Source of the DNA: a virus
Direction: 5' to 3' (one strand)
Length of the DNA stretch: 64,000 nucleotides
Virus record (IMG/VR): IMGVR_UViG_3300043411_001575
Span: 96,001 to 160,000 of that record
In this document: positions 4,319 through 20,633 of the stretch, piece by piece
How the letters are laid out: every line of letters starts with the position of its first letter
How positions within the stretch are numbered: the first letter of the stretch is position 1
Translations under genes and position numbers: made by a program
The notes under the pieces: generated by a model
Told to the model about the DNA's origin: nothing
The model's input: the letters and a program-made list of their open reading frames with translations, nothing else
Databases searched by the model: none

Positions 4319-4415
4319 TAACGTTTTGCGGCTTTGCGTTCGGTTTTTTGCCTTATCCGAATGTCCAAATTTAGCACAATGTTTAAAGGCAAAAACTGAC
4401 GCAAAACCGATGTTA
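4319..4415. repeat. attC-like hairpin H6
   Basis: TTTGCGTTCGGTTTTTTGCCTT / AAGGCAAAAACTGACGCAAA. Confidence 0.85.
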
Positions 4416-4489
4416 TAAGCTGGCTGCGGTTTATTAAACGAAAAGCTAAATACGAAGCACTAAAGAAAAGAATTTAAAAAAAGGAAGGG

Positions 4490-5308: not shown

Positions 5309-5319
5309 CAGCTTGCTTA

Positions 5320-5445
5320 TAACGGTTTCGGGCTTGGCGAAGAAGCGGACTTATACCACTAAAGTTGATACGAAGAACCAATGTTGATGCTACTACAAAT
5401 GTTCATACGAAGCACTAAACCCGCTTTTTTGCCAATACTTTGTTA
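5320..5445. repeat. attC-like hairpin H7 (near-identical to H11)
   Basis: TTGGCGAAGAAGCGG / CCGCTTTTTTGCCAA. Confidence 0.85.
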
Positions 5446-5527
5446 TGCGTTCGCCTTATTTTTTCGTGTTGATTTTCAGCAAGTTAGAAACTATTTTAAA
5501 AATAAATCAAAAATACTTTGAAAAAAG

Positions 5528-5558
5528 TTTGCAGTTATCAAAATAGGTTGTATATTTG
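5528..5558 (+). promoter_or_regulatory. Bacteroidota-type promoter in cassette 8
   Basis: TTTG-N19-TATATTTG. Confidence 0.7.
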
Positions 5559-5587
5559 TACCAGATAACAATTAAAAAATAAACAAA

Positions 5588-5737
5588 ATGACAACAGCAA
5601 CAGTAAAATCAGAAGCAAAATGGAAAACACAATTTCAAATAATGTGGAATAACACACCAAAGAAATTAAGAAGAACCATCTCACAAGTAAACAACATTAA
5701 ATCACAAGCAAAATTATACGCAGCATTATGGATGTAA
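5588..5737 (+). CDS. small hypothetical protein (49 aa), cassette 8
   Basis: ATG at the position equivalent to 8218 in sister cassette 12. Confidence 0.6.
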   Translation: MTTATVKSEAKWKTQFQIMWNNTPKKLRRTISQVNNIKSQAKLYAALWM

Positions 5738-5949
5738 CAGCAAAAATGGAGCAGGGCAATATAAAAGCCCTGTTCCCCAACTTAGGAATGGAAGTAATTA
5801 CAAATGGCTGTGTTTGCCAAATTATTCAAATCTCATCTCAACAAATCAAAGTCGAAATAACCGAAGCAATAAACCCGATGTATAAAGTTGGAAATCAAAT
5901 TTGGGTTGATAGCTTTTTAATACCATCCGATGAAAAAGAAAAAAACTAA
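5728..5949 (+). CDS. hypothetical protein, cassette 8
   Basis: ORF overlapping both neighbours. Confidence 0.6.
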   Translation: MDVTAKMEQGNIKALFPNLGMEVITNGCVCQIIQISSQQIKVEITEAINPMYKVGNQIWVDSFLIPSDEKEKN

Positions 5950-6097
5950 TAGAGGTGGAGTTCGGGATGGGGCTGGTAGAAAAAAAGCAGACTACGAAAC
6001 AAAAACTATTTCCTTTCGTGTTCGTCTTGAATTTGTAGAACCGATTAAAAAGATGGTCAAGGATTATGTTTCGGAGCGTCTTAAAGGTGACGCATAA
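5930..6097 (+). CDS. small RHH-like DNA-binding protein (55 aa), cassette 8
   Basis: RGGVRDGAGRKKADYETKTISFRVRLEFVEPIKKMV; stop codon is the TAA of TAAC. Confidence 0.75.
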   Translation: MKKKKTNRGGVRDGAGRKKADYETKTISFRVRLEFVEPIKKMVKDYVSERLKGDA

Positions 6098-6214
6098 CGT
6101 TCGAGGGCTTGGCGAAGTGGCTGAACCTGAAGCTAAATAGAATTACTAAACTTAAAAATTAAGAACGAATGATTGATAGAATTACTGAACAGCCATTTTG
6201 CCAAACCCGTGTTA
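6095..6214. repeat. attC-like hairpin H8, contains the start codon of the next gene
   Basis: TTGGCGAAGTGGCTG / CAGCCATTTTGCCAA; same family as H17, H18, H25. Confidence 0.9.
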
Positions 6215-6939
6215 GTGGCAGTACTTTTGTGAATGCTGATTGCTTTGATGTTTTTCCTTTTATCGAGGATAAATCAATTGATGCTATTATTGCCGATTTG
6301 CCTTATGGAACTACTCAAAATAAATGGGATAGTATTTTGCCACTTAATAAACTTTGGAAAGAATACAAGCGGATTTTAAAAGATAGTGGTTGTGTTGTTC
6401 TTTTTGCTCAAACTCCATTTGACAAAGTACTTGGTTGTTCAAATTTAGATTGGTTAAAATACGAATGGATTTGGGATAAAAAACTTGGAAGTGGTTCTTT
6501 GAATGTAAAAAAAATGCCTTTAAAAAGACACGAAAATATATTAGTATTTAGCAAAGGGAAAACCACATATAATCCACAAATGACAAAAGGTAAATTTAGA
6601 AATAAAAGTACAAGTAAGCCATCATCTAATAAAGGTAATTACGGAGAAATAACACACCAAAAAGATAATTTTAATGATGATTATTATCCAACCACTATTT
6701 TAGAATTTACTAATGCAAATGTAAGAGCAAGGGTTCATCCAACTGAAAAACAATTATCTCTTATGGAATACCTTGTAAAAACATACACAAACGAAGGCGA
6801 TACAGTTTTAGATAATACAATGGGTTCAGGAACAACAAACTTGGCTTGTATCAAATTAAATCGCAAATCAATTGGAATTGAAAAGGAAAAACAATATTAC
6901 GATGTCGCTGTTCGGAGGGCTTCGGAGTATTGCCACTAA
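6169..6939 (+). CDS. DNA methyltransferase, beta class, cassette 9
   Basis: DLPY, HPTEK, DNTMGSGTT. Confidence 0.9.
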   Translation: MIDRITEQPFCQTRVSGSTFVNADCFDVFPFIEDKSIDAIIADLPYGTTQNKWDSILPLNKLWKEYKRILKDSGCVVLFAQTPFDKVLGCSNLDWLKYEWIWDKKLGSGSLNVKKMPLKRHENILVFSKGKTTYNPQMTKGKFRNKSTSKPSSNKGNYGEITHQKDNFNDDYYPTTILEFTNANVRARVHPTEKQLSLMEYLVKTYTNEGDTVLDNTMGSGTTNLACIKLNRKSIGIEKEKQYYDVAVRRASEYCH

Positions 6940-7024
6940 CGTTTTGCGTATATGAGAAGTGGCACTTGCACAAACTTGAAATTTAGCACAAATGTTTCTG
7001 TGCCATTTCTTATATACGCTGTTA
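6937..7024. repeat. attC-like hairpin H9
   Basis: identical to 3306-3393. Confidence 0.9.
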
Positions 7025-7121
7025 TGCCCTCGTTGCGGTAATTTTAGAACTAACTTCAATCGAAGCACTAAGGCATTTTTATTCTTTTTGTGGGAGGGTT
7101 GAAAACTTTTTTAAAATAACA

Positions 7122-7152
7122 CTTGCTAATTAGCAAAATATAGTTACTTTTG
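7122..7152 (+). promoter_or_regulatory. Bacteroidota-type promoter in cassette 10
   Basis: CTTG-N19-TACTTTTG. Confidence 0.6.
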
Positions 7153-7188
7153 TAACGCAATAATGCAGAAAACTAAAATTTAAAAACA

Positions 7189-7419
7189 ATGTCAAAAGCA
7201 GTTTATCAATTATTATTTGCTAATCAATCTGCCGATTCAAAGGTGCGATATGAATTAGTTAGAGAAACAAAAATGTATGTTTTTTTAAGAGAAATCACAA
7301 AAGAACCTCAATACATTTTTAGAGTTCACAAAAAAACATTAAGCGTTAAGGGTATCAAGGAAGGTAAAAATGGTTATCAATTTGACGTGGCTGACGCAAG
7401 AATTTTAAAAAAAGTATAA
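7189..7419 (+). CDS. hypothetical protein, cassette 10
   Basis: ORF after promoter. Confidence 0.7.
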   Translation: MSKAVYQLLFANQSADSKVRYELVRETKMYVFLREITKEPQYIFRVHKKTLSVKGIKEGKNGYQFDVADARILKKV

Positions 7420-7421
7420 CT

Positions 7422-7607
7422 ATGCGACTATCTGTAACAGAATACGCAAAACAGCTTGGTGTAACTCGTCAAGCTGTTTTGTTACAGATTAAAGAAAAAA
7501 GGTTGCCTAATAATGTTAAGTCTGAAAAAATTGGCAACACTTACTCTTTAACTGTGGGTGGGCAAAAAAAGAATAAAAATGCTTCCAATAAACTACAATC
7601 GAAGTAG
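7422..7607 (+). CDS. small HTH DNA-binding protein, cassette 10
   Basis: LSVTEYAKQLGVTRQAVLLQIK helix-turn-helix pattern. Confidence 0.75.
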   Translation: MRLSVTEYAKQLGVTRQAVLLQIKEKRLPNNVKSEKIGNTYSLTVGGQKKNKNASNKLQSK

Positions 7608-7625
7608 TATCGTAGCAATGGGGCA

Positions 7626-7715
7626 TAACGGTTGAGTGTATGAGTAGTGTGGCTTTGTACATACTCTCGACTTACAGATAAATTTATTTAGCCACATTAC
7701 TTATACACTTTGTTA
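7626..7715. repeat. attC-like hairpin H10
   Basis: AGTGTATGAGTAGTGTGGCT / AGCCACATTACTTATACACT. Confidence 0.88.
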
Positions 7716-7738
7716 TAGGTATGTAAAATTTACGGATT

Positions 7739-7933
7739 ATGAAACAGAAATATGTAAGATGCTTAGATAAGTTTGAAGTAGAATTAAAAGAAGGTGATAT
7801 TGTTGATGTTCAAATGGATGGTGAACATGAAATATATAAGAAAGAAGGTGGACAACTCTACTTCAAACCTTATGGAAAAGAAGATATGGTAAGTGCTTAC
7901 TTCTCAAATGATATGATTAAGGTAGAACGGTAG
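7739..7933 (+). CDS. small hypothetical protein with YopX-like motif, cassette 11
   Basis: LDKFEVELKEGDIV resembles the YopX D-K-x-G-x-E-I-Y-E-G-D-I motif. Confidence 0.6.
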   Translation: MKQKYVRCLDKFEVELKEGDIVDVQMDGEHEIYKKEGGQLYFKPYGKEDMVSAYFSNDMIKVER

Positions 7934-7949
7934 TAAATTTTATTACCTA

Positions 7950-8074
7950 TAACGGACGAGTATTGGCGAAGAAGCGGACTTTTACCACTAAAGTTGATAC
8001 GAAGAACTAATGTTGATGTTACTACAAACGTTCATACGAAGCACTAAAACCGCTTTTTTGCCAATACTTTGTTA
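7950..8074. repeat. attC-like hairpin H11
   Basis: AGTATTGGCGAAGAAGCGG / CCGCTTTTTTGCCAATACT. Confidence 0.88.
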
Positions 8075-8156
8075 TGCGTTCGCCTTATTTTTTCGTGTTG
8101 ATTTTCAGTAAGTTAGAAAATATTTTGAAAATAAATCCAAAATACTTTGAAAAAAG

Positions 8157-8187
8157 TTTGCAGTTATCAAAATAGGTTGTATATTTG
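8157..8187 (+). promoter_or_regulatory. Bacteroidota-type promoter in cassette 12
   Basis: TTTG-N19-TATATTTG, same as cassette 8. Confidence 0.7.
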
Positions 8188-8217
8188 TACTCAGATAACA
8201 ATTAAAAAATAAACAAA

Positions 8218-8463
8218 ATGAGAACATTGATTTTAGAAGCAAACGTAATTGAAACTAAAAACAGTTACACAATAGACACTACTATTGAAAAAGAATGGGG
8301 AATGAAAAAACCTATAATGAAAAAAATTCTTTACGGGATAGAAATTCAAAAGCCAACTGCATATAGAATTTATAATCATGGAAACGGTTCTTCAAGAACT
8401 TGGGTGTTTGGTGATTTGGAAATAAACCCAGATAGTAGAAGTGTTAAAAAATTGGCAAAGTGA
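8218..8463 (+). CDS. hypothetical protein, cassette 12
   Basis: ORF after promoter. Confidence 0.7.
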   Translation: MRTLILEANVIETKNSYTIDTTIEKEWGMKKPIMKKILYGIEIQKPTAYRIYNHGNGSSRTWVFGDLEINPDSRSVKKLAK

Positions 8464-8627
8464 AAAAGAAAAAAGAAACGAGAGGGGGCAAACGCTCCTT
8501 CTCTGGTCGCAGAAAAGCATCATACGAAACTAAAACTATTTCCTTTAGAGTTCGTATTGAATTTGTCGAACCGATTAAAAAGATGGTTAAGGATTATGTT
8601 TCGGAGCGTCTTAAAGGTGACGCATAA
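8460..8627 (+). CDS. small RHH-like DNA-binding protein (55 aa, GTG start), cassette 12
   Basis: C-terminal half nearly identical to 5930-6097; GTGA overlap with the upstream stop. Confidence 0.7.
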   Translation: MKKKKETRGGKRSFSGRRKASYETKTISFRVRIEFVEPIKKMVKDYVSERLKGDA

Positions 8628-8713
8628 CGTTTTGCGTGTATGAGCAGTGGCACTTATACAACGCTTGAATTTGACCACAAAACTTCCTGTGCCATTGCTT
8701 ATACACGCTGTTA
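8625..8713. repeat. attC-like hairpin H12
   Basis: GCGTGTATGAGCAGTGGCAC / GTGCCATTGCTTATACACGC. Confidence 0.9.
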
Positions 8714-8750
8714 GCAGTAGTACGGATTATTAACGAATAAATTAAATAGA

Positions 8751-9545
8751 ATGAGTAATAAAATAGATTTAGATAAATATTATACACCATTGGATAAAGC
8801 TAAATATTGTATTGACAAGGTGTATGAAATTATCGGAGAGAATAATATAAGCGAAGCTATTGAACCAAGCGCAGGTAACGGTAGTTTTAGCTTACAAGTG
8901 CCGACTACTTGTTGGGCTTATGATATTGAACCTGAACACGAAAGTATTATAAAGCAAGATTTCTTGACGTTGGATGTTGATTATCTTTATGGTAGGTTAA
9001 TAATTGGAAACCCACCATTCGGCAGTAGAATGAATTTAGCACAAAAATTTTTCAAAAAAAGTATTGAATTAGGTGACTATGTTGCATTTATATTACCAAT
9101 TAGTCAATTGTGGAATACTAACAGTTTATTTGAATTTGATTTGATTCATAGTGAAGATTTAGGTAAAGTAAAATATAGTGATAGAGATTTACATTGTTGC
9201 TTTAACATTTATAAAAGACCTGAAATTGGATTGAATAACAGACCAAAAAACAAACTAAACTCTGTTAGTATAACAAGACAGGATAGCAAAGGATATGATA
9301 CTATCAATGATTTTGATATAAGAATGTGTTATTGGGGAAATGGGAGTGCTGGAAAAATACTAAAAGAAGGTGAAACTTATAGTGCGGAATACAAGATAAA
9401 AGTAAATGATGAATTTAGAAAAGACGTAATAGATGTTCTTTCTAATATTAATTGGTTTGATGAACTGAATTGTATTGCTATGTTAAAAATTCAACAATTT
9501 CACATAATCAATGTACTGAAAAAGTATGTGCCAAACATTGATTAA
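8751..9545 (+). CDS. N6-adenine DNA methyltransferase, gamma class, cassette 13
   Basis: YYTP, motif I EPSAGNGSF before motif IV GNPPFG. Confidence 0.88.
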   Translation: MSNKIDLDKYYTPLDKAKYCIDKVYEIIGENNISEAIEPSAGNGSFSLQVPTTCWAYDIEPEHESIIKQDFLTLDVDYLYGRLIIGNPPFGSRMNLAQKFFKKSIELGDYVAFILPISQLWNTNSLFEFDLIHSEDLGKVKYSDRDLHCCFNIYKRPEIGLNNRPKNKLNSVSITRQDSKGYDTINDFDIRMCYWGNGSAGKILKEGETYSAEYKIKVNDEFRKDVIDVLSNINWFDELNCIAMLKIQQFHIINVLKKYVPNID

Positions 9546-9568
9546 TAGCACTAACGTAGTATTACTGC

Positions 9569-9693
9569 TAACGGTTACGGCTTTGTGCAGTGTGGGAAAT
9601 TGAAAAACAAAATTTGAATTATGCAGAAAAGTTTATTTGAAAACGAAATGTTGAATATAGTACAAAAGCCCACATTGCACAAAGCCGATGTTA
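9569..9693. repeat. attC-like hairpin H13, contains the start codon of the next gene
   Basis: CGGCTTTGTGCAGTGTGGG / CCCACATTGCACAAAGCCG. Confidence 0.9.
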
Positions 9694-10424
9694 GCCGCAG
9701 TACATTCTATCAGGGTGATTGTCTTGTGGAAATGGATAAGATTTCCGATAAAAGTGTGGATATGATTTTATGTGATTTGCCTTATGGAACAACAGCTTGC
9801 AAATGGGATAGTGTCATTCCTTTTGAGCCACTTTGGAAGCAATATGAAAGGATTATAAAAGATAACGGGGCAATAGTTTTGACAGCTTCGCAACCATTTA
9901 CAACAATATTAATAAGCAGCAATATAAAGTTATTCAGGTATGAATTAATTTGGCAAAAGGATAAGGCAAGTGGGTTTTTAAATGCTAATAAAATACCATT
10001 GAAAGCACACGAAAACGTTTTAGTATTTTACAAAAAGTTACCTACATATAATCCGCAAAAAACCATTGGTGGGCTGCAAAGGAAAAGGACAAGGAAAAAA
10101 CCAACGCATGAGGTTTTAGGTAAAACTGGTGTAAATGAAAAACACGTTATTTGGCAAGATAACACAAGATACCCTATAAGTGTTTTAGAATTTGATGTAG
10201 ATACTATTAACCACAGTTTGCACCCTACTCAAAAACCAATAGCATTAATGGAATATTTAATAAAAACCTACACCAACGAAGGAGAAACAGTTTTAGATAA
10301 CTGTATGGGTTCAGGAACAACTGGTGTGGCTTGTAAAAAAACAGGTAGGCACTTTATCGGAATAGAAAAGGATGAAAAGTATTTTGAAATTGCCGTTAGC
10401 AGGGTGTCTGCGTATTGCGGCTAA
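9621..10424 (+). CDS. DNA methyltransferase, beta class, cassette 14
   Basis: GDCL, DLPY, HPTQKP, DNCMGSGTT. Confidence 0.9.
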   Translation: MQKSLFENEMLNIVQKPTLHKADVSRSTFYQGDCLVEMDKISDKSVDMILCDLPYGTTACKWDSVIPFEPLWKQYERIIKDNGAIVLTASQPFTTILISSNIKLFRYELIWQKDKASGFLNANKIPLKAHENVLVFYKKLPTYNPQKTIGGLQRKRTRKKPTHEVLGKTGVNEKHVIWQDNTRYPISVLEFDVDTINHSLHPTQKPIALMEYLIKTYTNEGETVLDNCMGSGTTGVACKKTGRHFIGIEKDEKYFEIAVSRVSAYCG

Positions 10425-10536
10425 CGTTTTGCAGATAGGCGTTGTTGCCTCACAAATGATTGATTGAAACACTAAATTTAATAATATGGGAAATGATAAT
10501 TTAAAAACGGAAAGCAATAACGCCAATGTGCTGTTA
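10422..10536. repeat. attC-like hairpin H14, contains the start codon of the next gene
   Basis: GGCGTTGTTGC / GCAATAACGCC. Confidence 0.8.
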
Positions 10537-10827
10537 GGTGCTGGGTTTGTTTACTTGGTAGAATGTTCATCAGGAAGTTGGGATAGTTACCATTGGTGGG
10601 TTGGAGGAATATTTGAAAAGCAAGAAGATGCTGATAAATATGCACAAAGCTTGAATGATGAAAACAAACGATTAAAAGAGGTTGAATGCTCAATAAAAAC
10701 ACCATTTGAAGATATGACTGATGAAGAAGAAACGGAGTATTACAGGTGGTGGAATGGTAACAATGATGCTATGGAATGGAATGGTGCTAAAGTTAAGCAG
10801 TACCCCATAAACAAACCTTGCACCTAA
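10486..10827 (+). CDS. hypothetical protein, cassette 15
   Basis: ORF fills the cassette; stop codon in TAAC. Confidence 0.75.
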   Translation: MGNDNLKTESNNANVLLGAGFVYLVECSSGSWDSYHWWVGGIFEKQEDADKYAQSLNDENKRLKEVECSIKTPFEDMTDEEETEYYRWWNGNNDAMEWNGAKVKQYPINKPCT

Positions 10828-10912
10828 CGATTGGGTGTATGAGAAGGTTTGCTTAGATGAACTTTTAAATTTACACAGAATTTTATAGCAAACTTTCTTA
10901 TACACCTTGTTA
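10825..10912. repeat. attC-like hairpin H15
   Basis: GGTGTATGAGAAGGTTTGCT / AGCAAACTTTCTTATACACC. Confidence 0.88.
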
Positions 10913-10975
10913 TGTACAGGCACGGTAAATTACCGATGAACTTAATTAAATGAACGAAACTAATAATTTTTAAAA

Positions 10976-11716
10976 ATGTGGGATGGCAAATATGCTTTTG
11001 AAAAAAGCAAAATAATACAAGGAGATAGTTTGGATAAAATAAAATATATACCTAATGGCAGTATTGACTTAATTGTAACTGACCCACCGTATAAAATGAC
11101 GAAACAAGGTAATTCTTGCAGACCAAATTATATGAAAAGTGGAATGGGTGAAAACTTATTTGATGGTGAATTACCAAATACAAAAGAATGGATGAAACTT
11201 TGTTTTGATAAACTAAAAGACGATGCCCATTTCTATGTATTTACCAATATAAATAGTTTGCACGAATACCTTGATGTTGCAAAAGAATGTGGATTTAAAC
11301 TACATAATATTATAAGTATGATTAAAGATACCAAAATGCCTAATAGATGGTATTTAAAATACACTGAATTTGTATTGTTTTTTAGAAAAGGTAAAGCGTT
11401 TCCAATAAACGATATGACAAGTAGAGATTATGAATTTGTTGAAACACCAACATTAAAAAATGGCAAAATACATATATCACAAAAACCATTGAATTTTATT
11501 GAAAAACTAATAACAAATTCATCAAATGAAGGTGAAATATGTTTGGATTTATTTAGTGGAAGCGGAACACTTGCAGAAGCCTGTATAAATACAAATAGAG
11601 ATTTCATTATTATAGAGAAAAACCCAAATGACTTTGAAAAAGGCAAAGAAAGGGTGGGAAAAATTTTTAAAAATTATGGAATTAACATACAACCTTTAAT
11701 CGAAGCACAAATGTAG
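10976..11716 (+). CDS. DNA methyltransferase, beta class, cassette 16
   Basis: TDPPY, HISQKP, DLFSGSGT. Confidence 0.92.
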   Translation: MWDGKYAFEKSKIIQGDSLDKIKYIPNGSIDLIVTDPPYKMTKQGNSCRPNYMKSGMGENLFDGELPNTKEWMKLCFDKLKDDAHFYVFTNINSLHEYLDVAKECGFKLHNIISMIKDTKMPNRWYLKYTEFVLFFRKGKAFPINDMTSRDYEFVETPTLKNGKIHISQKPLNFIEKLITNSSNEGEICLDLFSGSGTLAEACINTNRDFIIIEKNPNDFEKGKERVGKIFKNYGINIQPLIEAQM

Positions 11717-11726
11717 TGCTTGTACA

Positions 11727-11813
11727 TAACGTTTTCGGGCTTGGCGAAGGTGGGCTTGTAGGATGCTCAATTTTAGCACAATGTGTCTGCCCACTTTTGC
11801 CAAACCCGTGTTA
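11727..11813. repeat. attC-like hairpin H16
   Basis: TTGGCGAAGGTGGGC / GCCCACTTTTGCCAA. Confidence 0.88.
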
Positions 11814-11910
11814 TATGAAGTGCCGACTTATTAAGCAGAATTTTAAATTGAAACTATAAACAGAAAAACAAAAAAGAAAAAAAGCGTAGGGAATTTTAAA
11901 AACAAACAAT

Positions 11911-12177
11911 ATGGAAAAGAATTTTATTGAAAAAGCAGAAAAAGAAATTGGTAGAAAATTTGGTTTTTTCATCAGATGTGATGATAAAAACAAACCAACA
12001 GAAGTATTAACCGATATGTACTTTGAACTATGGGAAACAGAAAAGATGAACGAGATTTTATCTTTATGCGAAACACATAATCTTAAATACGATTTTGGTT
12101 TAGAAAGTTTTGATACCAAAATAGATGCTATTGAACAAGAAATATGTATTGTTTCAACTAATTGCGAAAATTCATAA
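11911..12177 (+). CDS. hypothetical protein, cassette 17
   Basis: ORF 1 nt upstream of the MTase ATG. Confidence 0.65.
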   Translation: MEKNFIEKAEKEIGRKFGFFIRCDDKNKPTEVLTDMYFELWETEKMNEILSLCETHNLKYDFGLESFDTKIDAIEQEICIVSTNCENS

Positions 12178-12178
12178 A

Positions 12179-12922
12179 ATGGAAGCAAATACGATTTACA
12201 AAGGCGATTGCTTTGAACTTATAAAGCAAATAACAAAAGCAGATAACGTCAAACTTATTATTACAGACCCACCATATTTACATAATAAAGGAGGTGGGAA
12301 AACATCGGGAACAGAGGGTAAAAGTTCAATAGCTAATAGCCCTATGTATAAATTCGATTCATTTATGATGGAAGATATGAGTTCTTTTTTAGAGGAAGAT
12401 GTTTATAATCTATTAGATGAATATAAAAGAATAATGACAAAATTAAACTGCTTTATATTTACTAATGACACTTTGATACCGTATTATACAATGTGGGCAG
12501 TTAAAAACAATAAAAAGTTTACAATTTTAACTTGGGAAAAACCATTGTCGATTTTAAACAGAAATAGATTTAGTCAGAATTTAGAATATGTTGTGAGGAT
12601 TTACGACAATGGAACTGCACTTAATTTAATAGATTTAGAAGCATATCCCGAAAAGAAAAACTACTACTCAAAAAACAGAAGGTTAAATTCGCCTACAAAT
12701 AAGATACACCCAACCCAAAAACCATTAGAATATCTACTTGGATTGATTGAGTTAAATACAAATGAAGGCGATTTAGTATTAGATACGTTTTTTGGTAGTG
12801 GACAAACAGGTAAGGCTTGTCAGATTTTAAATAGAAATTATATCGGTTTTGAAAGAGAAGAAAAGTATGTTGAATTATCAAATAAATATTTACAACAAGG
12901 ATTTGAAAAAACACTATTTTAA
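12179..12922 (+). CDS. DNA methyltransferase, beta class, cassette 17
   Basis: TDPPY, HPTQKP, DTFFGSG. Confidence 0.92.
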   Translation: MEANTIYKGDCFELIKQITKADNVKLIITDPPYLHNKGGGKTSGTEGKSSIANSPMYKFDSFMMEDMSSFLEEDVYNLLDEYKRIMTKLNCFIFTNDTLIPYYTMWAVKNNKKFTILTWEKPLSILNRNRFSQNLEYVVRIYDNGTALNLIDLEAYPEKKNYYSKNRRLNSPTNKIHPTQKPLEYLLGLIELNTNEGDLVLDTFFGSGQTGKACQILNRNYIGFEREEKYVELSNKYLQQGFEKTLF

Positions 12923-12997
12923 AAGTGTGGTGGCTTTTTTCTTTTTGTTTTTCATTAACGGAACTTCAATTGGAAACGGTCAGCAAGGCATTTCATA

Positions 12998-13117
12998 TAA
13001 CGTTCGAGGGCTTGGCGAAGTGGCTGAACCTGAAGCTAAATAGAATTACTAAACTTAAAAATTAAGAACGAATGATTGATATAATTACTGAACAGCCATT
13101 TTGCCAAACCCGTGTTA
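12998..13117. repeat. attC-like hairpin H17, contains start codon
   Basis: near-identical to H8. Confidence 0.9.
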
Positions 13118-13881
13118 GTGGCAGTACTTTTGTGAATGCTGATTGCTTTGATGTTTTTCCTTTTATCGAGGATAAATCAATTGATGCTATTATTTGCGAT
13201 TTGCCCTATGGAACAACTCAATGTAAATGGGATAGCATTATTAATTTAGATTTGATGTGGACGCAATACAACAGAATAATAAAAGATAACGGCATTTTTA
13301 TATTATTTGCAGATGAGCCTTTTACAAGCATATTAATAAATAGTAACATTAAAAATTTTAAGCAAAGAATAACTTGGGATAAACAAATAGCAGGAGGTCA
13401 TTTAAACGCTAAAAAAATGCTATTGAAAAGAACTGAGGATATATGCTTATTTTCAAATGTTAAAAATGGAAAATATACATACAATCCTATTTTAAAAGAT
13501 AAGGATTTTAAAAACATAAGAGATAGAAACGGAGAAAACAGAAAAGAGTTTAAAGGCGGTTATGTAGGGAAACACAATAGTACGTTGAGTAAAGAGCATA
13601 ACAATAAAAAAAGTTACCCAGATAATTTAATTTCCTTTTCAGCAAGAAAAGGCGATTGTAACCCTATAAATAGATTACACCCAACACAAAAACCACTTGA
13701 ATTGATGGAATATCTTATAAAAACCTATACTAATGAGGGCGATTTGGTTTTAGATAACACAATGGGTTCTGGAACAACAATTTTAGCTGCTATAAAAAAT
13801 AATAGAATTGGTATAGGAATTGAAAAGGAAAAACAATATTATGATGTCGCTGTTCGTAGGGCTTCGGAGTATTGCCACTAA
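13072..13881 (+). CDS. DNA methyltransferase, beta class, cassette 18
   Basis: DLPY, HPTQKP, DNTMGSGTT. Confidence 0.9.
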   Translation: MIDIITEQPFCQTRVSGSTFVNADCFDVFPFIEDKSIDAIICDLPYGTTQCKWDSIINLDLMWTQYNRIIKDNGIFILFADEPFTSILINSNIKNFKQRITWDKQIAGGHLNAKKMLLKRTEDICLFSNVKNGKYTYNPILKDKDFKNIRDRNGENRKEFKGGYVGKHNSTLSKEHNNKKSYPDNLISFSARKGDCNPINRLHPTQKPLELMEYLIKTYTNEGDLVLDNTMGSGTTILAAIKNNRIGIGIEKEKQYYDVAVRRASEYCH

Positions 13882-13998
13882 CGTTATCGGGCTTGGCGAA
13901 GTGGCTGAACCCGAAGCTAAATAGAATTACTAAACTTAAAAATTAAAAACGAATGTCAAATAGAATTACAGAACAGCCATTTTGCCAAACCAGTGTTA
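13879..13998. repeat. attC-like hairpin H18, contains start codon
   Basis: H8 family. Confidence 0.9.
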
Positions 13999-14711
13999 GT
14001 GGCAGTACTTTTGTAAATGCTGATTGCTTTGATGTTTTTCCTTTTATTGAGGACAAATCAATTGATGCTATTATTTGCGATTTGCCTTATGGAACTACTG
14101 CTTGTAAGTGGGATACAATTATACCATTTGAGCCGCTATGGGAGCAGTACAAGCGAGTGATTAAACCTAATGGTGCGATAGTGCTGTTTAGCAAAGAGCC
14201 ATTTACGTGCATATTGAGAACAAGTGAAATTAAAATTTTTAAGCAACCTCTTATTTGGGATAAGGTTAATTCAGATAACCCTATGCAGGCAAAAAGAAGA
14301 CATCTAAACACTACGGAGGATATTTCTATCTTTTACAAATCTCAATGTACTTATAACCCACAAGGTCTTATAAAGTCAAATATAAAAAAGGGAGGGAAGC
14401 AAGGGATAATGATTGATAGTAGTGGTAAGGAAAAAGAACAATATATTCAAGAGAATACCAATTATCCGAAAAATATATTAGTGTACCCGATAGAAAGAAA
14501 GGCGGTTCATCCAACTCAAAAACCCGAAGCACTCCTGCAATACTTAGTCAAAACCTACACTAACGAAGGCGATATAGTCTTAGATAACTGTATGGGTTCA
14601 GGTACAACAAATCTTGCTTGTTTAAAATTAAATCGCAAATCAATTGGAATAGAAAAGGAAAAACAATATTACGATGTCGCTGTTCGTAGGGCTTCTGAGT
14701 ATTGCCACTAA
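13953..14711 (+). CDS. DNA methyltransferase, beta class, cassette 19
   Basis: DLPY, HPTQKP, DNCMGSGTT. Confidence 0.9.
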   Translation: MSNRITEQPFCQTSVSGSTFVNADCFDVFPFIEDKSIDAIICDLPYGTTACKWDTIIPFEPLWEQYKRVIKPNGAIVLFSKEPFTCILRTSEIKIFKQPLIWDKVNSDNPMQAKRRHLNTTEDISIFYKSQCTYNPQGLIKSNIKKGGKQGIMIDSSGKEKEQYIQENTNYPKNILVYPIERKAVHPTQKPEALLQYLVKTYTNEGDIVLDNCMGSGTTNLACLKLNRKSIGIEKEKQYYDVAVRRASEYCH

Positions 14712-14765
14712 CGGTATCCGTATAAGGGAAGTGCGAGGAACGAGCATTTACTTTATACGGTGTTA
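14709..14765. repeat. attC-like hairpin H19 (shortest, 57 bp)
   Basis: CCGTATAAGG / CTTTATACGG. Confidence 0.85.
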
Positions 14766-14856
14766 GCAAAGTGCGTTGGGATTGTGTGTCGGCTCGTTCC
14801 AAAACCATTTATTTTCTTTTTTTTGGGGAGGTTTTGAAAACTTTTTTACTAAAATA

Positions 14857-14887
14857 CTTGCTAAATGACAATTTATATTTATCTTTG
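14857..14887 (+). promoter_or_regulatory. Bacteroidota-type promoter in cassette 20
   Basis: CTTG-N19-TATCTTTG. Confidence 0.6.
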
Positions 14888-14918
14888 AACCATATTAATA
14901 ATCTAAAAACAAAACAAA

Positions 14919-15230
14919 ATGATTTACAAAAAAACACACTATGATAAAAAGGCTTTAAACAGCCACGTTTCAAAAATAAAAGATGCAGGAGGAAATGCAA
15001 TAGTAGATGGATTATCGGTTAGATATTTCTATCCATCCAATACCATTGGTGAAATTAGATTAAAGCATAAGAGTTGGAAGAAAACAGAAAGACAAGAAGT
15101 TTTGTTTATTGTTTTAGTTTCTGAAAAAGATAAAACGCCATACTATTCAGCAATGTATTTCCCGAAATGGGTTGAAATAGGAGGTGTTTATGGAAACAAA
15201 AATGACATAACAATAATCGAAAAGTTTTAA
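14919..15230 (+). CDS. hypothetical protein, cassette 20
   Basis: ORF after promoter. Confidence 0.7.
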   Translation: MIYKKTHYDKKALNSHVSKIKDAGGNAIVDGLSVRYFYPSNTIGEIRLKHKSWKKTERQEVLFIVLVSEKDKTPYYSAMYFPKWVEIGGVYGNKNDITIIEKF

Positions 15231-15232
15231 CT

Positions 15233-15388
15233 ATGAAACTGTCTGTAACAGAATATGCAAAACAGCTTGGCGTAACTCGTCAAGCCGTTTTGTTACAAAT
15301 TAAAGAAAAAAGGTTGCCTAAAAATGTGAAGGTTGAAAAAATCGGAAATACTTATTCTTTAACTGTGGGTGGGCAAAAAAGAAAATAA
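15233..15388 (+). CDS. small HTH DNA-binding protein (51 aa, not in ORF track), cassette 20
   Basis: MKLSVTEYAKQLGVTRQAVLLQIKEKRLP, paralog of 7422-7607. Confidence 0.75.
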   Translation: MKLSVTEYAKQLGVTRQAVLLQIKEKRLPKNVKVEKIGNTYSLTVGGQKRK

Positions 15389-15407
15389 ATGGTTTTGGAA
15401 TGTTTGC

Positions 15408-15497
15408 TAACGTATGGTGCTATGAGCAGGTTTGCCTTGCAGAAATGTTCAAATTTAGCACTAATGTTATTGGCAAACTTGCTTATAGCACGTGTTA
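15408..15497. repeat. attC-like hairpin H20
   Basis: GTGCTATGAGCAGGTTTGCC / GGCAAACTTGCTTATAGCAC. Confidence 0.88.
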
Positions 15498-15533
15498 GCG
15501 GTAGTTTATTTTTCAAAAATTAAAATTAAAAAT

Positions 15534-15992
15534 ATGGGAACACAAGTAGTAGGAGAAAGTAACAGCGTTGAGTATAGCACTCCGTTGAAAATAGTACAGC
15601 CATTGATAAACGAATTTGGCTTAACAAGAGATGTTTGTGCAAGTGAATTAAACCACAAACTACCCGATTATTGGACAAAAGAAGATAATTCACTTGCTAT
15701 GAATTGGAAAGGTAATTGTTGGATGAACCCACCATTTAGCAGAGATTTGAATAAGTGGGTAAAGAAAGCGTGTAATGATGCTGAAAGGTTTGGAGGAACG
15801 AAAGTTTGTTTAATACCTGTAAGAAGCAATACAAAATGGTGGGCGGAAGTTTGTGTAAAAGCAGAAATTCGTTTTATCAATGGCGAAGTAAATTTTAATG
15901 ATGAAGAACGTGGACTTTGGTTGCCGATGTGTATTATCATTTTCGGTGAGAAGGCAAAGGTTGGCACGTTCTCTGTCTTAAATTACCGCTAA
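15534..15992 (+). CDS. phage Dam-like N6-adenine methyltransferase, cassette 21
   Basis: YSTP, DVCAS, WMNPPFS, LIPVRSNTKWW, EIRFI. Confidence 0.88.
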   Translation: MGTQVVGESNSVEYSTPLKIVQPLINEFGLTRDVCASELNHKLPDYWTKEDNSLAMNWKGNCWMNPPFSRDLNKWVKKACNDAERFGGTKVCLIPVRSNTKWWAEVCVKAEIRFINGEVNFNDEERGLWLPMCIIIFGEKAKVGTFSVLNYR

Positions 15993-16062
15993 CGTTTTGC
16001 AGCTAACAGAAGGCGGCTTTTTAGCAAACTTAGTACTTGCCGCTTTTTGTTAGCTGCTGTTA
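15990..16062. repeat. attC-like hairpin H21
   Basis: GCAGCTAACAGAAGGCGGC / GCCGCTTTTTGTTAGCTGC. Confidence 0.88.
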
Positions 16063-16120
16063 GTGGACTGTTAAATTATTAAAAAAGAAAAAAGGAGGGG
16101 TGCGAGGGCATCTAAACATA

Positions 16121-16957
16121 ATGGACAAGAAGAAACTTTTAATTGCTTTTAGTGGTGGAGAAACATCTGCATTTATGGCTCAATGGTTATGGAAACATAA
16201 ACAAGGTGAATACGAAATGTTATTTGCTTTTGCTAATACTGGGGTTGAGAATGAAGAAACTTTAAACTTTGTGCATAAATGCGAAGTTGAATTTGGTATA
16301 AATGTTAATTGGTTGGAAGCAGTAATAGACCAAGAGAAAGGGAAAGGCACAAGGCATAAGATTGTTGATTACAAAACAGCAAGTAGAAACGGACAACCAT
16401 TTGAGGAACTGATAAAGAAATACGGTTTACCAAACCAACAGCGATTTCACTGCACAAGGGAGTTAAAAAATAATACATTGATTTCATTTGCAAAAAGTAT
16501 TTGGGGAAAGGAAAAGTATTATTTAGCAATAGGAATTAGAGTAGATGAATTTGATAGGATGAATGATAAATTTAAAGAGTTGAGAATTGTTTATCCGTTA
16601 ATTTCAGAAATTCCAATGACAAAGCCAAAGATTAATTTTTGGTGGAAACAACAACCGTTTAGATTAGAATTAAAAGGTTATCAAGGGAATTGTGTTACTT
16701 GCTACAAAAAAAGTGATAAAAAATTGTTTCAGATAGCTAAAGAAAATCCAAGTGCATTTGATTTCTTTGATAGAATGGAAGAACAATATGGAGAAGGTAA
16801 GTATCAATTTTTTAGGCAGAACCGAACAGCTAAACAAATTATGGAACAAGCTAAAGAATGGAATGGCAATGTAACCGATGACGCACAAAATGTTACAATA
16901 CAAACAGATTTATTTAGCGAAAGTTGTGAAGCATTTACAAGCGATTGCGGTGTTTAA
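16121..16957 (+). CDS. PAPS reductase-like (adenine nucleotide alpha hydrolase fold) protein, cassette 22
   Basis: PP-loop FSGGETSA, FANTG, CTRELK, IGIRVDE, YPL, NCVTC. Confidence 0.85.
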   Translation: MDKKKLLIAFSGGETSAFMAQWLWKHKQGEYEMLFAFANTGVENEETLNFVHKCEVEFGINVNWLEAVIDQEKGKGTRHKIVDYKTASRNGQPFEELIKKYGLPNQQRFHCTRELKNNTLISFAKSIWGKEKYYLAIGIRVDEFDRMNDKFKELRIVYPLISEIPMTKPKINFWWKQQPFRLELKGYQGNCVTCYKKSDKKLFQIAKENPSAFDFFDRMEEQYGEGKYQFFRQNRTAKQIMEQAKEWNGNVTDDAQNVTIQTDLFSESCEAFTSDCGV

Positions 16958-17026
16958 CCTTTTCACAGTTTTGAAAAAACTGAAAGAGTGCGTGGGCTTT
17001 TTCTTTTTTAATAATTTAATTGCCAC

Positions 17027-17152
17027 TAACGGTTCGCAGGTATATTTAGTTGCGGACTTAGTAACACAAAACTTTAAATTTAGAAGAAATGAAGAAAGAA
17101 GAACAAAACTCGAATGAACCACAAAAACCGCAATTGAATATACCTGCTGTTA
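17027..17152. repeat. attC-like hairpin H22, contains start codon
   Basis: GCAGGTATATTTAGTTGCGG / CCGCAATTGAATATACCTGC. Confidence 0.9.
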
Positions 17153-17445
17153 GTTGCAGTGTTGTTCATTGCAAGAAAGCACCTTATGATGTTTATATTG
17201 GAAGACCAAGCAAATGGGGTAATCCATTCACACACATAAAAGACGGTAAAACACTTGCAAAACATATTGTAGGTAGTAGAGATGAAGCAGTCGAAGCATA
17301 TCTTGAATGGATTACCAACGGAGAAGGTAAACATTTGATGAGTGATTTACACGAATTGAAAGATAAGGTGCTTGGTTGTTGGTGTCATCCACAATCTTGT
17401 CACGGAGATGTACTTTCGGAGTTGGTTGCTAAACATTGCAACTAA
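17089..17445 (+). CDS. DUF4326-like protein, cassette 23
   Basis: VYIGRPSKWGNPF..LGCWCHPQSCHGDVL. Confidence 0.85.
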   Translation: MKKEEQNSNEPQKPQLNIPAVSCSVVHCKKAPYDVYIGRPSKWGNPFTHIKDGKTLAKHIVGSRDEAVEAYLEWITNGEGKHLMSDLHELKDKVLGCWCHPQSCHGDVLSELVAKHCN

Positions 17446-17567
17446 CGTTTTGCAGGTATATTTAGTGCCGAATTTAAAAACGAAAAATATGAATTTTATA
17501 CAAAAGTTATTTAAAAGCAGAAAGGTTAATGAACCGATGAACTCGGCATTGAATATACCTGTTGTTA
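17443..17567. repeat. attC-like hairpin H23, contains start codon
   Basis: CAGGTATATTTAGTGCCGA / TCGGCATTGAATATACCTG. Confidence 0.9.
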
Positions 17568-17791
17568 TACCTCGTTTATCTTCTGATTGGATAAAATTTG
17601 AGGATGAAAAACCACCACACGAAGTAGTATTAGCTGCTTGCGATACTTATGATTGTGGATGGACTATGGATACTGTTTGGTGGTATGAAGATAAGCAATG
17701 TTGGATGGTTACTGGTGCAGTTAAAAGTACAGAAGCACATTTACCATACACACATTGGCGTAAATTACCACCATTTCCAAATGAGGTATAA
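17489..17791 (+). CDS. DUF551-like protein, cassette 24
   Basis: WIKFEDEKPP..VLA..THWRKLPPFP. Confidence 0.75.
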   Translation: MNFIQKLFKSRKVNEPMNSALNIPVVIPRLSSDWIKFEDEKPPHEVVLAACDTYDCGWTMDTVWWYEDKQCWMVTGAVKSTEAHLPYTHWRKLPPFPNEV

Positions 17792-17914
17792 CGTATTGGT
17801 GCTATACGAAGGAGGCGATTATTAGCACTAAATTTGATGCGGAGTACAAATGTTTGTTTAACCACAAATGTTTCTGCGGAGTACCAAACCGCCTCTTTTG
17901 TATAGCACGTGTTA
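17789..17914. repeat. attC-like hairpin H24
   Basis: GTGCTATACGAAGGAGGCG / CGCCTCTTTTGTATAGCAC. Confidence 0.88.
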
Positions 17915-17978
17915 TACGCTGGCACGGTTGATTAAACGAGAAACTTAAATTGAAACACAAAACAAAATTTTTATTAAA

Positions 17979-18764
17979 ATGAGCGAGGGCAAAAAAGAAA
18001 TATTATTAGGAGATTGTTTGGAACTTATGAAGGATATACCAAACGGAAGTATTGATATGATACTTTGTGATTTACCATACGGAACAACTGCTTGTAAATG
18101 GGATAGTGTAATACCTTTTGAACCACTTTGGAAAGAATATGAAAGGATTATAAAGACCAATGGTGCTATTTTATTGTTTGGAACACAACCATTCACAACA
18201 GAACTAATATTGAGCAATAGAAAATTGTTTAAGTATGATATGGTTTGGTGCAAAGACAAACCTGCTGACTTCGGAAATGGCAATATAAAACCATTAAGAT
18301 ACCACGAAACAATTTGTGTATTTTATACCAAAACGCCAACATACAATAAGCAATTTGAAAGCAGAAAAGGAACTGGCTATTCAAGGGCTAAATATCCTGT
18401 AAATTACATAAACAATTCAGAGCATAAATTTGGAATGAAAGATGGTTCTTTTGATTATGCAAATAAAGACAGAATGATTGGAACTGTAATAGATATTACA
18501 ACTGGTGCAAGAGGTAGCATAAAACACCCAACAGTAAAGCCCGTTCCTTTATTTGAACATTTAATCAAAACATATACCAACGAAGGTGAATTGGTTTTAG
18601 ATAATACAGCAGGAAGCGGAACAACTGCAATTGCTTGTTTGAATACTAAAAGGCAATTTATAGTAATGGAAAAAGAACAAAAGTATTACGATATGATTTT
18701 AAAAAGGGTGGGAGATTTTAATAAAAATTTTGAACCGCAAACTCTCTTTGGAAACGAAATGTAG
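17979..18764 (+). CDS. DNA methyltransferase, beta class, cassette 25
   Basis: GDCL, DLPY, HPTVKP, DNTAGSGTT. Confidence 0.9.
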   Translation: MSEGKKEILLGDCLELMKDIPNGSIDMILCDLPYGTTACKWDSVIPFEPLWKEYERIIKTNGAILLFGTQPFTTELILSNRKLFKYDMVWCKDKPADFGNGNIKPLRYHETICVFYTKTPTYNKQFESRKGTGYSRAKYPVNYINNSEHKFGMKDGSFDYANKDRMIGTVIDITTGARGSIKHPTVKPVPLFEHLIKTYTNEGELVLDNTAGSGTTAIACLNTKRQFIVMEKEQKYYDMILKRVGDFNKNFEPQTLFGNEM

Positions 18765-18774
18765 TGCTTGCGTA

Positions 18775-18894
18775 TAACGGTATCGGGCTTGGCGAAGTGG
18801 CTGAACCGAATGTTTGATAGAAGCACAAAACTTAATAATTAAAAACGAATGATTGATAGAATTACTGAACAGCCATTTTGCCAAACCCGTGTTA
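18775..18894. repeat. attC-like hairpin H25, contains start codon
   Basis: H8 family stems. Confidence 0.9.
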
Positions 18895-19643
18895 TGTGCA
18901 GGGCGGTTGATAACCTTGAACTCCTTTTGTCGCAACCTGATGAAAGTGTAGATTTGATTTACTGTGATATTCTTTATGGAACGGGTAGGAATTTCGGTGA
19001 TTACCAAGACTTAAAACCAATTAGAAGCGAAATAGAAAGCCACTACCTACCAAGACTTATTGAAATGAAACGAGTTTTAAAAAGTACAGGTAGTATTTAT
19101 TTGCAAATGGATACACGAATAAACCATTGGATGCGCATTTTGATGGATGATGTTTTTGGGTATGAAAATTTCCGCAATGAAATAGTATTTGGATATAATG
19201 GGGGTGGTGTTTCAAAGAATTGTTATCCTAAAAAACACGACATAATCTTGTTTTATTCTGTTAGTGATAAATACTATTTTAATAACGAAAAGAAACCATA
19301 CTCCGCTTTAAGTTCACAAAACTTATTGTGGAAACATAGGAATAAAAAAAGACTTGATGAACTTAATGATGGCACACCTGTAACCGATGTATGGACTGAT
19401 TTGAAGTTTAAAATAAATTACCAAGAGGAAGAATATACAGGATATGCTACCCAAAAAACAAAAGAATTATTGAGCCGTATTGTTTTAGCTTCCACAAATG
19501 AAGGCGATACAGTTGCAGATTATTATTTAGGTAGTGGCACAACGGCAGTAGTTTGTAAGGAACTGAACCGAAATTTTATAGGTTGCGATATTAATCCAAA
19601 AGCTATTGAAATAACAAATGCTCGTTTAGATGCACTTTCGTAG
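18849..19643 (+). CDS. DNA methyltransferase, beta class, cassette 26
   Basis: DLIYCDILY (variant motif IV), FRNEIV, YATQK, DYYLGSGTT. Confidence 0.85.
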   Translation: MIDRITEQPFCQTRVMCRAVDNLELLLSQPDESVDLIYCDILYGTGRNFGDYQDLKPIRSEIESHYLPRLIEMKRVLKSTGSIYLQMDTRINHWMRILMDDVFGYENFRNEIVFGYNGGGVSKNCYPKKHDIILFYSVSDKYYFNNEKKPYSALSSQNLLWKHRNKKRLDELNDGTPVTDVWTDLKFKINYQEEEYTGYATQKTKELLSRIVLASTNEGDTVADYYLGSGTTAVVCKELNRNFIGCDINPKAIEITNARLDALS

Positions 19644-19702
19644 CTTTGCACATAACGTGTATTTAATGGAATGGAGTGTCAAAATCAATTAGTTACATAA
19701 TA
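19640..19702. other. putative attI-like primary recombination site
   Basis: Last TAACG (19653-19657) is followed by the integrase gene instead of a hairpin and TGTTA. Confidence 0.55.
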
Positions 19703-20572
19703 ATGGAAGATAAAATTAACAAATTAAGGAGGGAGTTATCCATAAGGAAATATGCTCCTAATACAGTTGAAACATATTGTTCATGTCTTAAAGTTATTTT
19801 TAGTAAATGTGGAATTAATCCAAGTATTGATTCTTTAAAGTCATATTTATTAACTATTGAAAATAGAAACTACCATAAACAAATAGTCGCTACATTCAGA
19901 AACTACTCTGAATTTGTATTAGGTATTAAATTATCTTTAAACGATGTTCCTTATCCTAGAAAACAAGAAAGTTTGCCTGAAATATATTCAGTTGAAGAGG
20001 TTTCTAAATTAATTAATATTCCTAAAAATTTAAAACATCAATCTATAATTTTTTTATTGTATGGATGTGGACTTAGAGTTAGTGAATTAATTAATTTAAA
20101 ATTAACTGATATAGATAGTGATAGAATGGTTGTTAACATCCGAAAAGCAAAAGGAAATAAGGACAGGCAAATAATGTTGGATGAATCTTTACTTAAATTA
20201 CTTCGTGATTATTACACTGAATATAAACCAATAAATTATTTATTCAATGGTCAAAAAAAAGACCAATATAGTGACAGGTCTGTAAATGAACTTCTTAAAT
20301 ATTGGTCTAAAAAAGCAGGTATAAAAAAACATATTCATGCTCATTTATTAAGGCATTCATTCGCTACCCATCTTTTAGATGCAGGAATAGACATGGCTAT
20401 AATTCAAAAGTTATTAGGTCATTCAAACATAAAAACAACGCAAATTTATGCAAAAATTTCAACCAAATTAATATCTCAAATTAAATCTCCATTATCAAAC
20501 ATTAAAATCAATTCAAATGAAAAATCTAGTAATATTATTCCTTTGTGGAATTCTGATAGGTTTCCAAACTAA
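19703..20572 (+). CDS. tyrosine recombinase (integron-integrase-like, no IntI insertion)
   Basis: N-terminal SAM-like RKYAPNTVETY; catalytic GLRVSE, KGNKDR, HLLRHSFATH, LGHSNIKTTQIY; alternative GTG start at 19676. Confidence 0.93.
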   Translation: MEDKINKLRRELSIRKYAPNTVETYCSCLKVIFSKCGINPSIDSLKSYLLTIENRNYHKQIVATFRNYSEFVLGIKLSLNDVPYPRKQESLPEIYSVEEVSKLINIPKNLKHQSIIFLLYGCGLRVSELINLKLTDIDSDRMVVNIRKAKGNKDRQIMLDESLLKLLRDYYTEYKPINYLFNGQKKDQYSDRSVNELLKYWSKKAGIKKHIHAHLLRHSFATHLLDAGIDMAIIQKLLGHSNIKTTQIYAKISTKLISQIKSPLSNIKINSNEKSSNIIPLWNSDRFPN

Positions 20573-20633
20573 GACCAAAAAGCAATTTAACTTTAAATCT
20601 CATTCAAAATTAACTAAAGCTGATTCCTAAAAC

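Follow-up and report, generated by a model that had tools for sequence, protein, structure and literature searches.

An integron-like array in a large Flavobacterium-type phage whose long hairpins very probably carry the start codon of the gene behind them

In the usual view of integrons, the recombination site attC lies behind its gene, and cassettes rely on a promoter and, for the most part, on start signals of their own. Inverted cassettes are found in sedentary chromosomal integrons, for example toxin-antitoxin cassettes with their own promoters; they form a minority, and their promoters and starts are internal. The array considered here lies in a virus record of the IMG/VR database (IMGVR_UViG_3300043411_001575), of which bases 96,001–160,000 were analysed as one window of 64,000 nucleotides; the whole record has 169,658 bp and an estimated completeness of 82%. 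It consists of short units, many of them encoding DNA methyltransferases, which are separated by attC-like hairpins, and it belongs to a large family of phage arrays that appears to reverse the integron view: the site stands in front of the gene and, in its long form, very probably contains the start of that gene.

The nearest functional precedent is found in class 1 integrons, where ORF-11, ORF-17 and ORF-18 of the attI1 site, together with short open reading frames (ORFs) in some attC sites, aid translation by coupling (PMC8876359). In phages, small attC clusters without an integrase (CALINs) were described by Qi et al. (2023), one of them, in a Polaribacter phage, with two methyltransferases (PMC9892861); a targeted text search of that paper found no mention of in-site start codons, inverted polarity or a Xer-type enzyme. 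Muminvirus, a genus of cultured Flavobacterium phages, carries the same hairpins as the present array. Its methyltransferase content has been linked to plating efficiency by Nilsson et al. (2020), in whose paper the word "hairpin" is absent (PMC7077304). No description of an arrangement in which a hairpin carries the start of a gene was found in the literature searched.

Start codons in the loops of long hairpins

The window (G+C about 31%) comes from a large Flavobacterium-type phage and has phage structural genes on the minus strand in its second half. On the plus strand, from the window start to position 19,656, runs a row of short units with imperfect hairpins between them, each with TAAC at its left end and GTTA at its right end. 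This is the 3' half of an array that extends over record bases 77,777–115,656, about 38 kb with about 45 units. Its 45 hairpins were recovered by a local-alignment scan, an ungapped scan having returned none and a strict global-alignment scan few, as a one-sided bulge defeats both. The sites measure 57–130 nt and fall into two classes, short (57–97 nt) and long (115–130 nt). Folded as RNA or as single-stranded DNA, they form a core box of 6–7 bp, a 4-nt bulge only on the TAAC side and a stem of about 20 bp, topped in the long class by a weakly structured loop of 60–75 nt. Each body, the part of a unit that follows its hairpin, opens with bases complementary to its own end, and a circular unit would therefore carry a fully paired site.

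Eight ORFs of the window, named below by their first position, begin at an ATG in the loop of a hairpin of 115–126 nt and stay open in frame through the right arm and the GTTA core, as a reading made from the sequence alone had proposed. Four of them encode N6/N4 DNA methyltransferases behind hairpins of 120 nt, with the ATG at −45 counted from the last A of GTTA: 6169–6939 (hairpin 6095–6214, attC-like), which opens with a hairpin-encoded leader of 15 residues and stops at the TAA of the next TAAC; 13072–13881 (hairpin 12998–13117), likewise with a hairpin-encoded leader; 13953–14711 (hairpin 13879–13998), whose body offers no alternative start before a TTG 84 nt past the core; and 18849–19643, behind the last hairpin of the array (18775–18894). 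As the same reading had noted, one leader is fused to two methyltransferase subfamilies: the 15 residues are identical in 6169 and 18849, while the bodies are only about 30% identical. A fifth N6/N4 methyltransferase (9621–10424, ATG at −72) follows a 125-nt hairpin at 9569–9693 with loop ATGs at 9621 and 9648, and has no start in its body ahead of the conserved GDC motif. The remaining three are an ORF of 113 residues and unknown function (10486–10827, ATG at −50; hairpin 10422–10536, 115 nt), which takes up the whole unit, starting at the loop ATG and stopping at the TAA of the following TAAC; a DUF4326 protein (17089–17445, ATG at −63; hairpin 17027–17152, 126 nt); and an ORF of 100 residues and unknown function (17489–17791, ATG at −78), which likewise starts at the loop ATG, stops at the TAA of the following TAAC and lies behind a 125-nt hairpin at 17443–17567 with loop ATGs at 17489 and 17537. 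The core is read as GTT (Val) in seven of the ORFs and as TTA (Leu) in 10486; two frames had been noted, and both occur in the array, although the wider family described below uses three.

Starts within the body are absent or implausible ahead of conserved residues in 9621, 13953 and 17089. In the last of these, the Pfam domain begins at residue 25, only 4 residues past the core Val, and the start must therefore lie in the hairpin. Over the whole array, a loop ATG opens the next ORF in 14 of 20 long hairpins. In the short class the frame reaches back into the hairpin in 3 of 25 cases, and only to a GTG or TTG located 5 nt before the core end. The other end of the gene is often marked by the following site, since the TAA of the next TAAC is the stop codon in 9 of the 14 loop-start ORFs; in the window, this TAA terminates the preceding ORF at 6937–6940, 10422–10425, 10825–10828, 13879–13882, 14709–14712, 15990–15993, 17443–17446 and 17789–17792.

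The same relationship was examined in a pool of phage contigs, collected through a 22-nt left-arm sequence of the 120-nt hairpin that occurs exactly in 114 IMG/VR contig stretches and amounting, with the present array, to 445 hairpins on 115 contigs. Cassettes were called core-open if a reading frame extends from the core for 60 codons or more without a stop. This applies to 204 of the 309 cassettes that follow long hairpins, and 184 of these 204 have an ATG in the hairpin in the same frame, open to the core, as compared with 68 of 408 (17%) in the other two frames. Restricted to unique pairings of hairpin and body, the figures are 117 of 136 for the used frame and 58 of 272 (21%) for the control frames, so that a frame in use is matched in 86–90% of cases and any given frame in 17–21% by chance. 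The 19 exceptions among the 136 all have an ATG of their own within 25 codons of the core. Where a gene behind a long hairpin lacks a start, the hairpin always holds an ATG in its frame (117 of 117 unique pairings), with 61, 40 and 16 pairings in the three frames. In the 120-nt class, ATG and GTT lie 42 nt apart ahead of bodies in the GTT frame and 41 nt apart ahead of those in the TTA frame, in 74 of 74 cases. Conservation of the loop ATG reaches at least 99% over 92 copies, and GTG takes its place in one copy. The observation is thus real, statistically robust and general.

Leaders were also sought on unrelated phage proteins with the hairpin in their DNA, the check that had been put forward with the original proposal, and the outcome was positive: 113 distinct leaders, typically of 14–25 residues, are fused to 72 protein families that are unrelated in an all-against-all BLAST comparison. 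The same or similar leaders precede N6/N4 methyltransferases, C5 methyltransferases, PAPS-reductase-like proteins and DUF4326 proteins, all confirmed by Pfam, as well as dozens of unknowns, and the domains of the DUF4326, C5 methyltransferase and PAPS-reductase proteins begin 4–12 residues past the core. One methyltransferase body in the TTA frame is found behind three unrelated hairpins, and the body of 9621 behind two (the second in locus L048), each time with an in-frame ATG. The 30 nt ahead of the loop ATGs are A-rich, as before other genes of the phage, which fits the Shine-Dalgarno-poor starts of Bacteroidota. In the pool, 79 of 182 complete leader-fused ORFs stop at the TAA of the next TAAC, and 55 more stop less than 30 nt before the next hairpin. 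That the hairpin supplies the start codon and a leader of 14–25 residues, the core of the earlier proposal, is upheld by the pooled frame matching, and these genes very probably do start at their loop ATGs. This accounts for the odd, shared N-termini that gene callers give to these methyltransferases.

The mobile unit and its candidate recombinase

The canonical polarity of integrons was considered first for this array, and was ruled out by linkage and by insertions and deletions (indels). What moves is the hairpin with its downstream gene, as follows from indels, from paralogues within the array and from the linkage of flanks. When flanks of 150 nt were compared at an identity of at least 85%, the hairpin was common to 0 of 99 pairs that share the upstream flank and differ in the downstream one. 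Among copies of the 120-nt class, a selection-biased set, 237 pairs have the same downstream body and a different upstream flank, and the reverse pattern occurs in none.

Cultured phages provide the indels. Muminvirus isolates mumin6-1 and mumin6-3 are about 99.9% identical in the compared region except for a segment of 506 bp, which corresponds exactly to one hairpin plus gp008 and is inserted inside TAAC|GTT; the next hairpin is present in both genomes. In filifjonk9-1, three extra hairpin-plus-body units stand ahead of the retained hairpin, and in tooticki6-1 the last position is occupied by a different unit, composed of a hairpin and a C5 methyltransferase. An automated search of the pooled loci for collinear pairs differing by a unit insertion found none. 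Within the present array, paralogous blocks start at TAAC and pass through the hairpin into the body, as does the block 6094–6336, 96.7% identical to 12997–13239, whereas blocks that cover the 3' ends of genes stop at TAAC. Finally, a TAAC ends the last body, and no hairpin follows, in mumin6-1, mumin6-3, filifjonk9-1, tooticki6-1 and the window. Because the hairpin travels with the gene that follows it, start and body are normally linked in cis.

In the window, the bases ahead of this terminal TAAC (19653–19656) are complementary to those with which the last body begins, and the TAAC is a candidate insertion point. It lies 20–50 nt ahead of a plus-strand ORF at 19676–20572, directly after the array, which encodes an XerA-like tyrosine recombinase with a probable ATG at 19703. 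No IntI was found in the record, whose sole tyrosine recombinase is this Xer-like protein. Its best NCBIfam match is the archaeal XerA / integron integrase model (206 bits, under the cut-off of 220), while the integron integrase model TIGR02249 reaches 154.8 bits against a cut-off of 265, with a match split in two stretches. Among PDB structures, it aligns best, and in one stretch, to Pyrococcus XerA (4a8e), as compared with two stretches for IntI4 (2a3v). Homologues of 266–276 residues are common in metagenomes. Those with 60% identity, in two phage-like contigs (L126 and L127), and one with 48% identity in a Flavobacterium chromosome (L123, GCA_046293665.1) all have a hairpin array of the same polarity upstream of them. 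The terminal TAAC of L126 is arranged as in the window, and the last gene there starts in a hairpin loop. The array of L123 (1414–5717) has hairpins of 126–128 nt about 4 kb upstream of the recombinase, and its called genes start 15–30 nt past the hairpins, not in the loops. A search for related loci by recombinase returned one close viral relative, cut at a contig end, and nothing useful in the genome collection.

The preferred reading and its alternatives

Taken together, these data favour an integron-like array of hairpin-plus-gene units in which the start is built into the long hairpins, a reading to which we assign a probability of roughly 0.75. A unit comprises an attC-like hairpin and the gene body that follows, which ends in, or just before, the TAAC of the next unit; units would be exchanged inside TAAC|GTT, where the hairpin begins on its left. 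On the minus strand the layout is the usual one of an integron, a body followed by its attC, where crossover would occur at G|TT and the recombinase gene, at the presumed insertion end, is transcribed away from the array. All genes are inverted, however, and this inversion is what allows the start of a gene to sit in its own recombination site. In long hairpins, an A-rich translation start region of Bacteroidota type would lie in the loop of 60–75 nt together with the ATG. The last 8–10 residues of the 14–25-residue leader are encoded by the right arm and GTT(A), the body continues in frame, and the TAA of the next TAAC is often the stop codon. This anatomy, the matching of frames, the association of each hairpin with its downstream gene and the exact gain or loss of units are direct observations; ribosomes would start at the loop ATG, the acting enzyme would be the XerA-like recombinase, and the leader would serve only to carry the start over the site.

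Several observations weigh against this reading. The bodies of 6169 and 13072 have a GTG five codons past the core, and in 18849 another ATG (18894) stands immediately behind GTT, each a possible start of the gene's own; these caveats had accompanied the sequence-only reading, and all are present. The loops of the 120-nt class are highly conserved overall, so that conservation of the ATG is by itself weak evidence, and the GenBank starts of Muminvirus at loop ATGs are choices of gene callers, translation itself being inferred. The same body is found behind a different hairpin, with the break exactly at GTTA, in 29 of 33 unbiased pairs; such right-edge exchange makes the simple one-crossover picture incomplete, and may reflect occasional use of the other strand. 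Finally, proteins with the PF00589 domain were not found in three array-bearing Muminvirus genomes or in a complete array-bearing phage record of 187 kb, where the enzyme may act in trans, a different enzyme may be involved, or the arrays may only be inherited.

A far-reaching extension of the preferred reading is possible, if doubtful. The long hairpin would be a complete expression adaptor, offering an initiation region, a start and a leader in three frames, with the stop given by the next site, so that an ORF devoid of start and stop could be stored, moved and expressed. Exchange at the GTT core would re-pair bodies and create new N-termini or silencing, and the whole would represent a recombination site that doubles as a translational element, in an integron lineage run by a Xer-type enzyme and common to phages of Bacteroidota and their hosts.

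Alternatively, translation could begin within the bodies, from GTG or TTG codons, from the ATG in the core or from near-cognate codons; the loop ORFs would then be untranslated by-products or short upstream ORFs that ease ribosomes through the stem. The possible body starts of 6169, 13072 and 18849 can be read in this way, and the loop ATGs open to the core that many long hairpins (78 of 105) hold ahead of genes with a start of their own would suit coupling of the kind known for ORF-11 or for short ORFs in attC (PMC8876359). The explanation is nevertheless unlikely. No usable start precedes the conserved residues of 9621, 13953 and 17089, and the GTG is not conserved, being replaced by GTA or TAT in some orthologues of the 6169-type body. 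Frame matching at 86–90% against about 20% in control frames, and a 1-nt length variant that tracks the frame of the body, would not be selected unless the loop ATG were read into the body.

The sequence-only reading had gone further, and viewed the site as a portable initiation module whose pairing with bodies could switch genes on or off. The hairpin would then belong to the cassette upstream, as in a canonical integron, and shuffling would bring start and leader to new genes. One leader on many unrelated bodies, one body behind different hairpins with breaks at GTTA, and the precedent of ORF-11 and ORF-18 of attI1, where a site-borne start is read across the crossover (PMC8876359), all speak for such a module. 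It is largely refuted, however, by the indels, which move the hairpin with the gene after it, and by the linkage of flanks, with no hairpin shared among the 99 pairs of common upstream flank; the paralogous blocks spanning TAAC, hairpin and body, and the last unit without a hairpin behind it, are also at odds with it, and we regard it as quite improbable. What stands is the provision of start and leader by the hairpin; free re-pairing does not. Switching finds no support either: among 136 unique core-open pairings with long hairpins, no start-less body lacking an in-frame hairpin ATG, the expected "off" state, was found. Rare swaps of hairpin at the GTT core do occur, with the frame kept each time, and occasional re-pairing of a body with another hairpin is possible.

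That the hairpins act chiefly at the RNA level, as terminators, processing sites or translational operators, with genes exchanged at their edges by homologous recombination between repeats, would suit their strong RNA folding (z-scores of −3.4 to −6.9), the array phages devoid of a tyrosine recombinase and the breaks at hairpins in contigs from four DNA runs, as short-read contigs break at any repeat, but is very unlikely given that no T-run follows the stems, that breaks fall exactly at 4-nt cores although the flanking hairpins are unrelated in sequence, that bodies begin with bases complementary to their own end as in integron cassettes, and that a related recombinase clade recurs beside such arrays.

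The remainder of the array and its place among known systems

Not all long hairpins of the window open a long ORF. In the one at 5320–5445 (plus strand), the loop ATG (5381) opens an ORF of only 46 codons, and its paralogue at 7950–8074 has ACG in place of this ATG; this ORF is either not real or was lost in one copy. The two hairpins, of the same class, head paralogous multi-ORF units (5320–6097 and 7950–8627). Another long hairpin (17789–17914, plus strand) is followed by a methyltransferase with its own ATG at 17979, and the loop ORF stops within the 5' untranslated region; an arrangement of the coupling type may exist at long hairpins ahead of such own-start genes. Own-start units (3393–3433, 4415–4490, 17914–17979 and similar ones) have a conserved 5' leader past the core, with an A-rich stretch before the ATG, that resembles the sequence ahead of the loop ATGs, and a start or promoter signal common to these leaders and the loops is possible. 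Inspection of the loops by eye gave no clear match to a Bacteroidota promoter motif. Elsewhere in IMG/VR, two loci (L022 and L054) have the left arm and loop of the 120-nt hairpin, then a gene starting at the usual position of the loop ATG, and no right arm, and a third (L071) combines unpaired left and right arms from different hairpin classes; these sites may be decayed or hybrid.

Record bases 77,777–96,000, upstream of the window (window coordinates −18,223 to 0), hold about 18 kb more of the array with 20 further hairpins, and here the loop ATG feeds the next ORF in 6 of 9 long hairpins. The cargo consists mostly of DNA methyltransferases (PF01555, MT-A70 and Dam), together with a PAPS-reductase-like protein, the DUF4326 protein and many small ORFs, so that the array looks like a store of DNA-modification genes. 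Apart from the N6/N4 methyltransferases, it includes in the window an MT-A70 methyltransferase (1822–2403), a Dam-type methyltransferase (15492–15992) and the PAPS-reductase-like protein, possibly involved in DNA modification (16100–16957). Rfam and tRNA scans of the window returned no matches. DNA nearly identical to window positions 700–20600 occurs in freshwater, groundwater and wastewater metagenomes of several studies (public runs X1, X2, X5 and X11), and 27–93% of sampled words were present in DNA runs from these habitats, against 8–12% in RNA runs. Many read joints lie 5–10 nt past a TAAC; their sides are shorter than 30 nt and the communities mixed, and they were not taken as evidence. 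Depth differs several-fold among units in a wastewater run, perhaps because some units are common to different phages there.

Beyond this phage, the arrangement matters in several respects. Because the site contains the start of the gene, constraints of DNA structure and of coding act on it at once. Bodies that run exactly from about codon 2 to the stop also bear on the origin of cassettes. The genes concerned are those that set phage host range, the methyltransferase content of Muminvirus tracking plating efficiency (PMC7077304), and cultured pairs of phage and host exist, so that the claim is directly testable.

With regard to known systems, the array has attC-type imperfect hairpins bounded by inverse ...AAC / GTT... 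cores, as judged by cores and fold, and with at least two such sites and no integron integrase nearby it corresponds to a CALIN. It shares with integron cassettes the hairpin sites and inverse cores, promoterless single-gene units in one orientation with complementary ends, precise gain or loss of units at the cores, and a tyrosine recombinase at one end of the array. In contrast to integrons, its enzyme is XerA-like, without the extra segment specific to the IntI clade; the site is linked to the downstream gene and lies 5' of it, instead of a gene followed by its own attC and reading away from the integrase, so that genes are inverted relative to the geometry of recombination; the long sites carry the start region, the start codon and a leader; and the cargo is mostly phage DNA methyltransferases, in an array carried by a virus. 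Inverted cassettes of chromosomal integrons similarly read from the attC side towards the integrase, but in the present array inversion is general and the site itself contains the start. Like the ORFs of attI1, the loop ORFs have a start codon and an initiation region of their own within a recombination site, are read across the crossover into the cassette, and help cassettes that lack an initiation region. Those of attI1 are, however, short separate peptides that are ended by a stop in the cassette and act by coupling, from a single attI site and occasionally from attC, whereas the eight loop ORFs of the window run without a stop into the whole protein; the fusion is in frame with the protein itself, is found at most long sites and in three frames, and the site belongs to the unit of the gene. 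The system thus works in the manner of an integron, yet lacks two features by which integrons are defined, an IntI enzyme and an attC site 3' of the gene.

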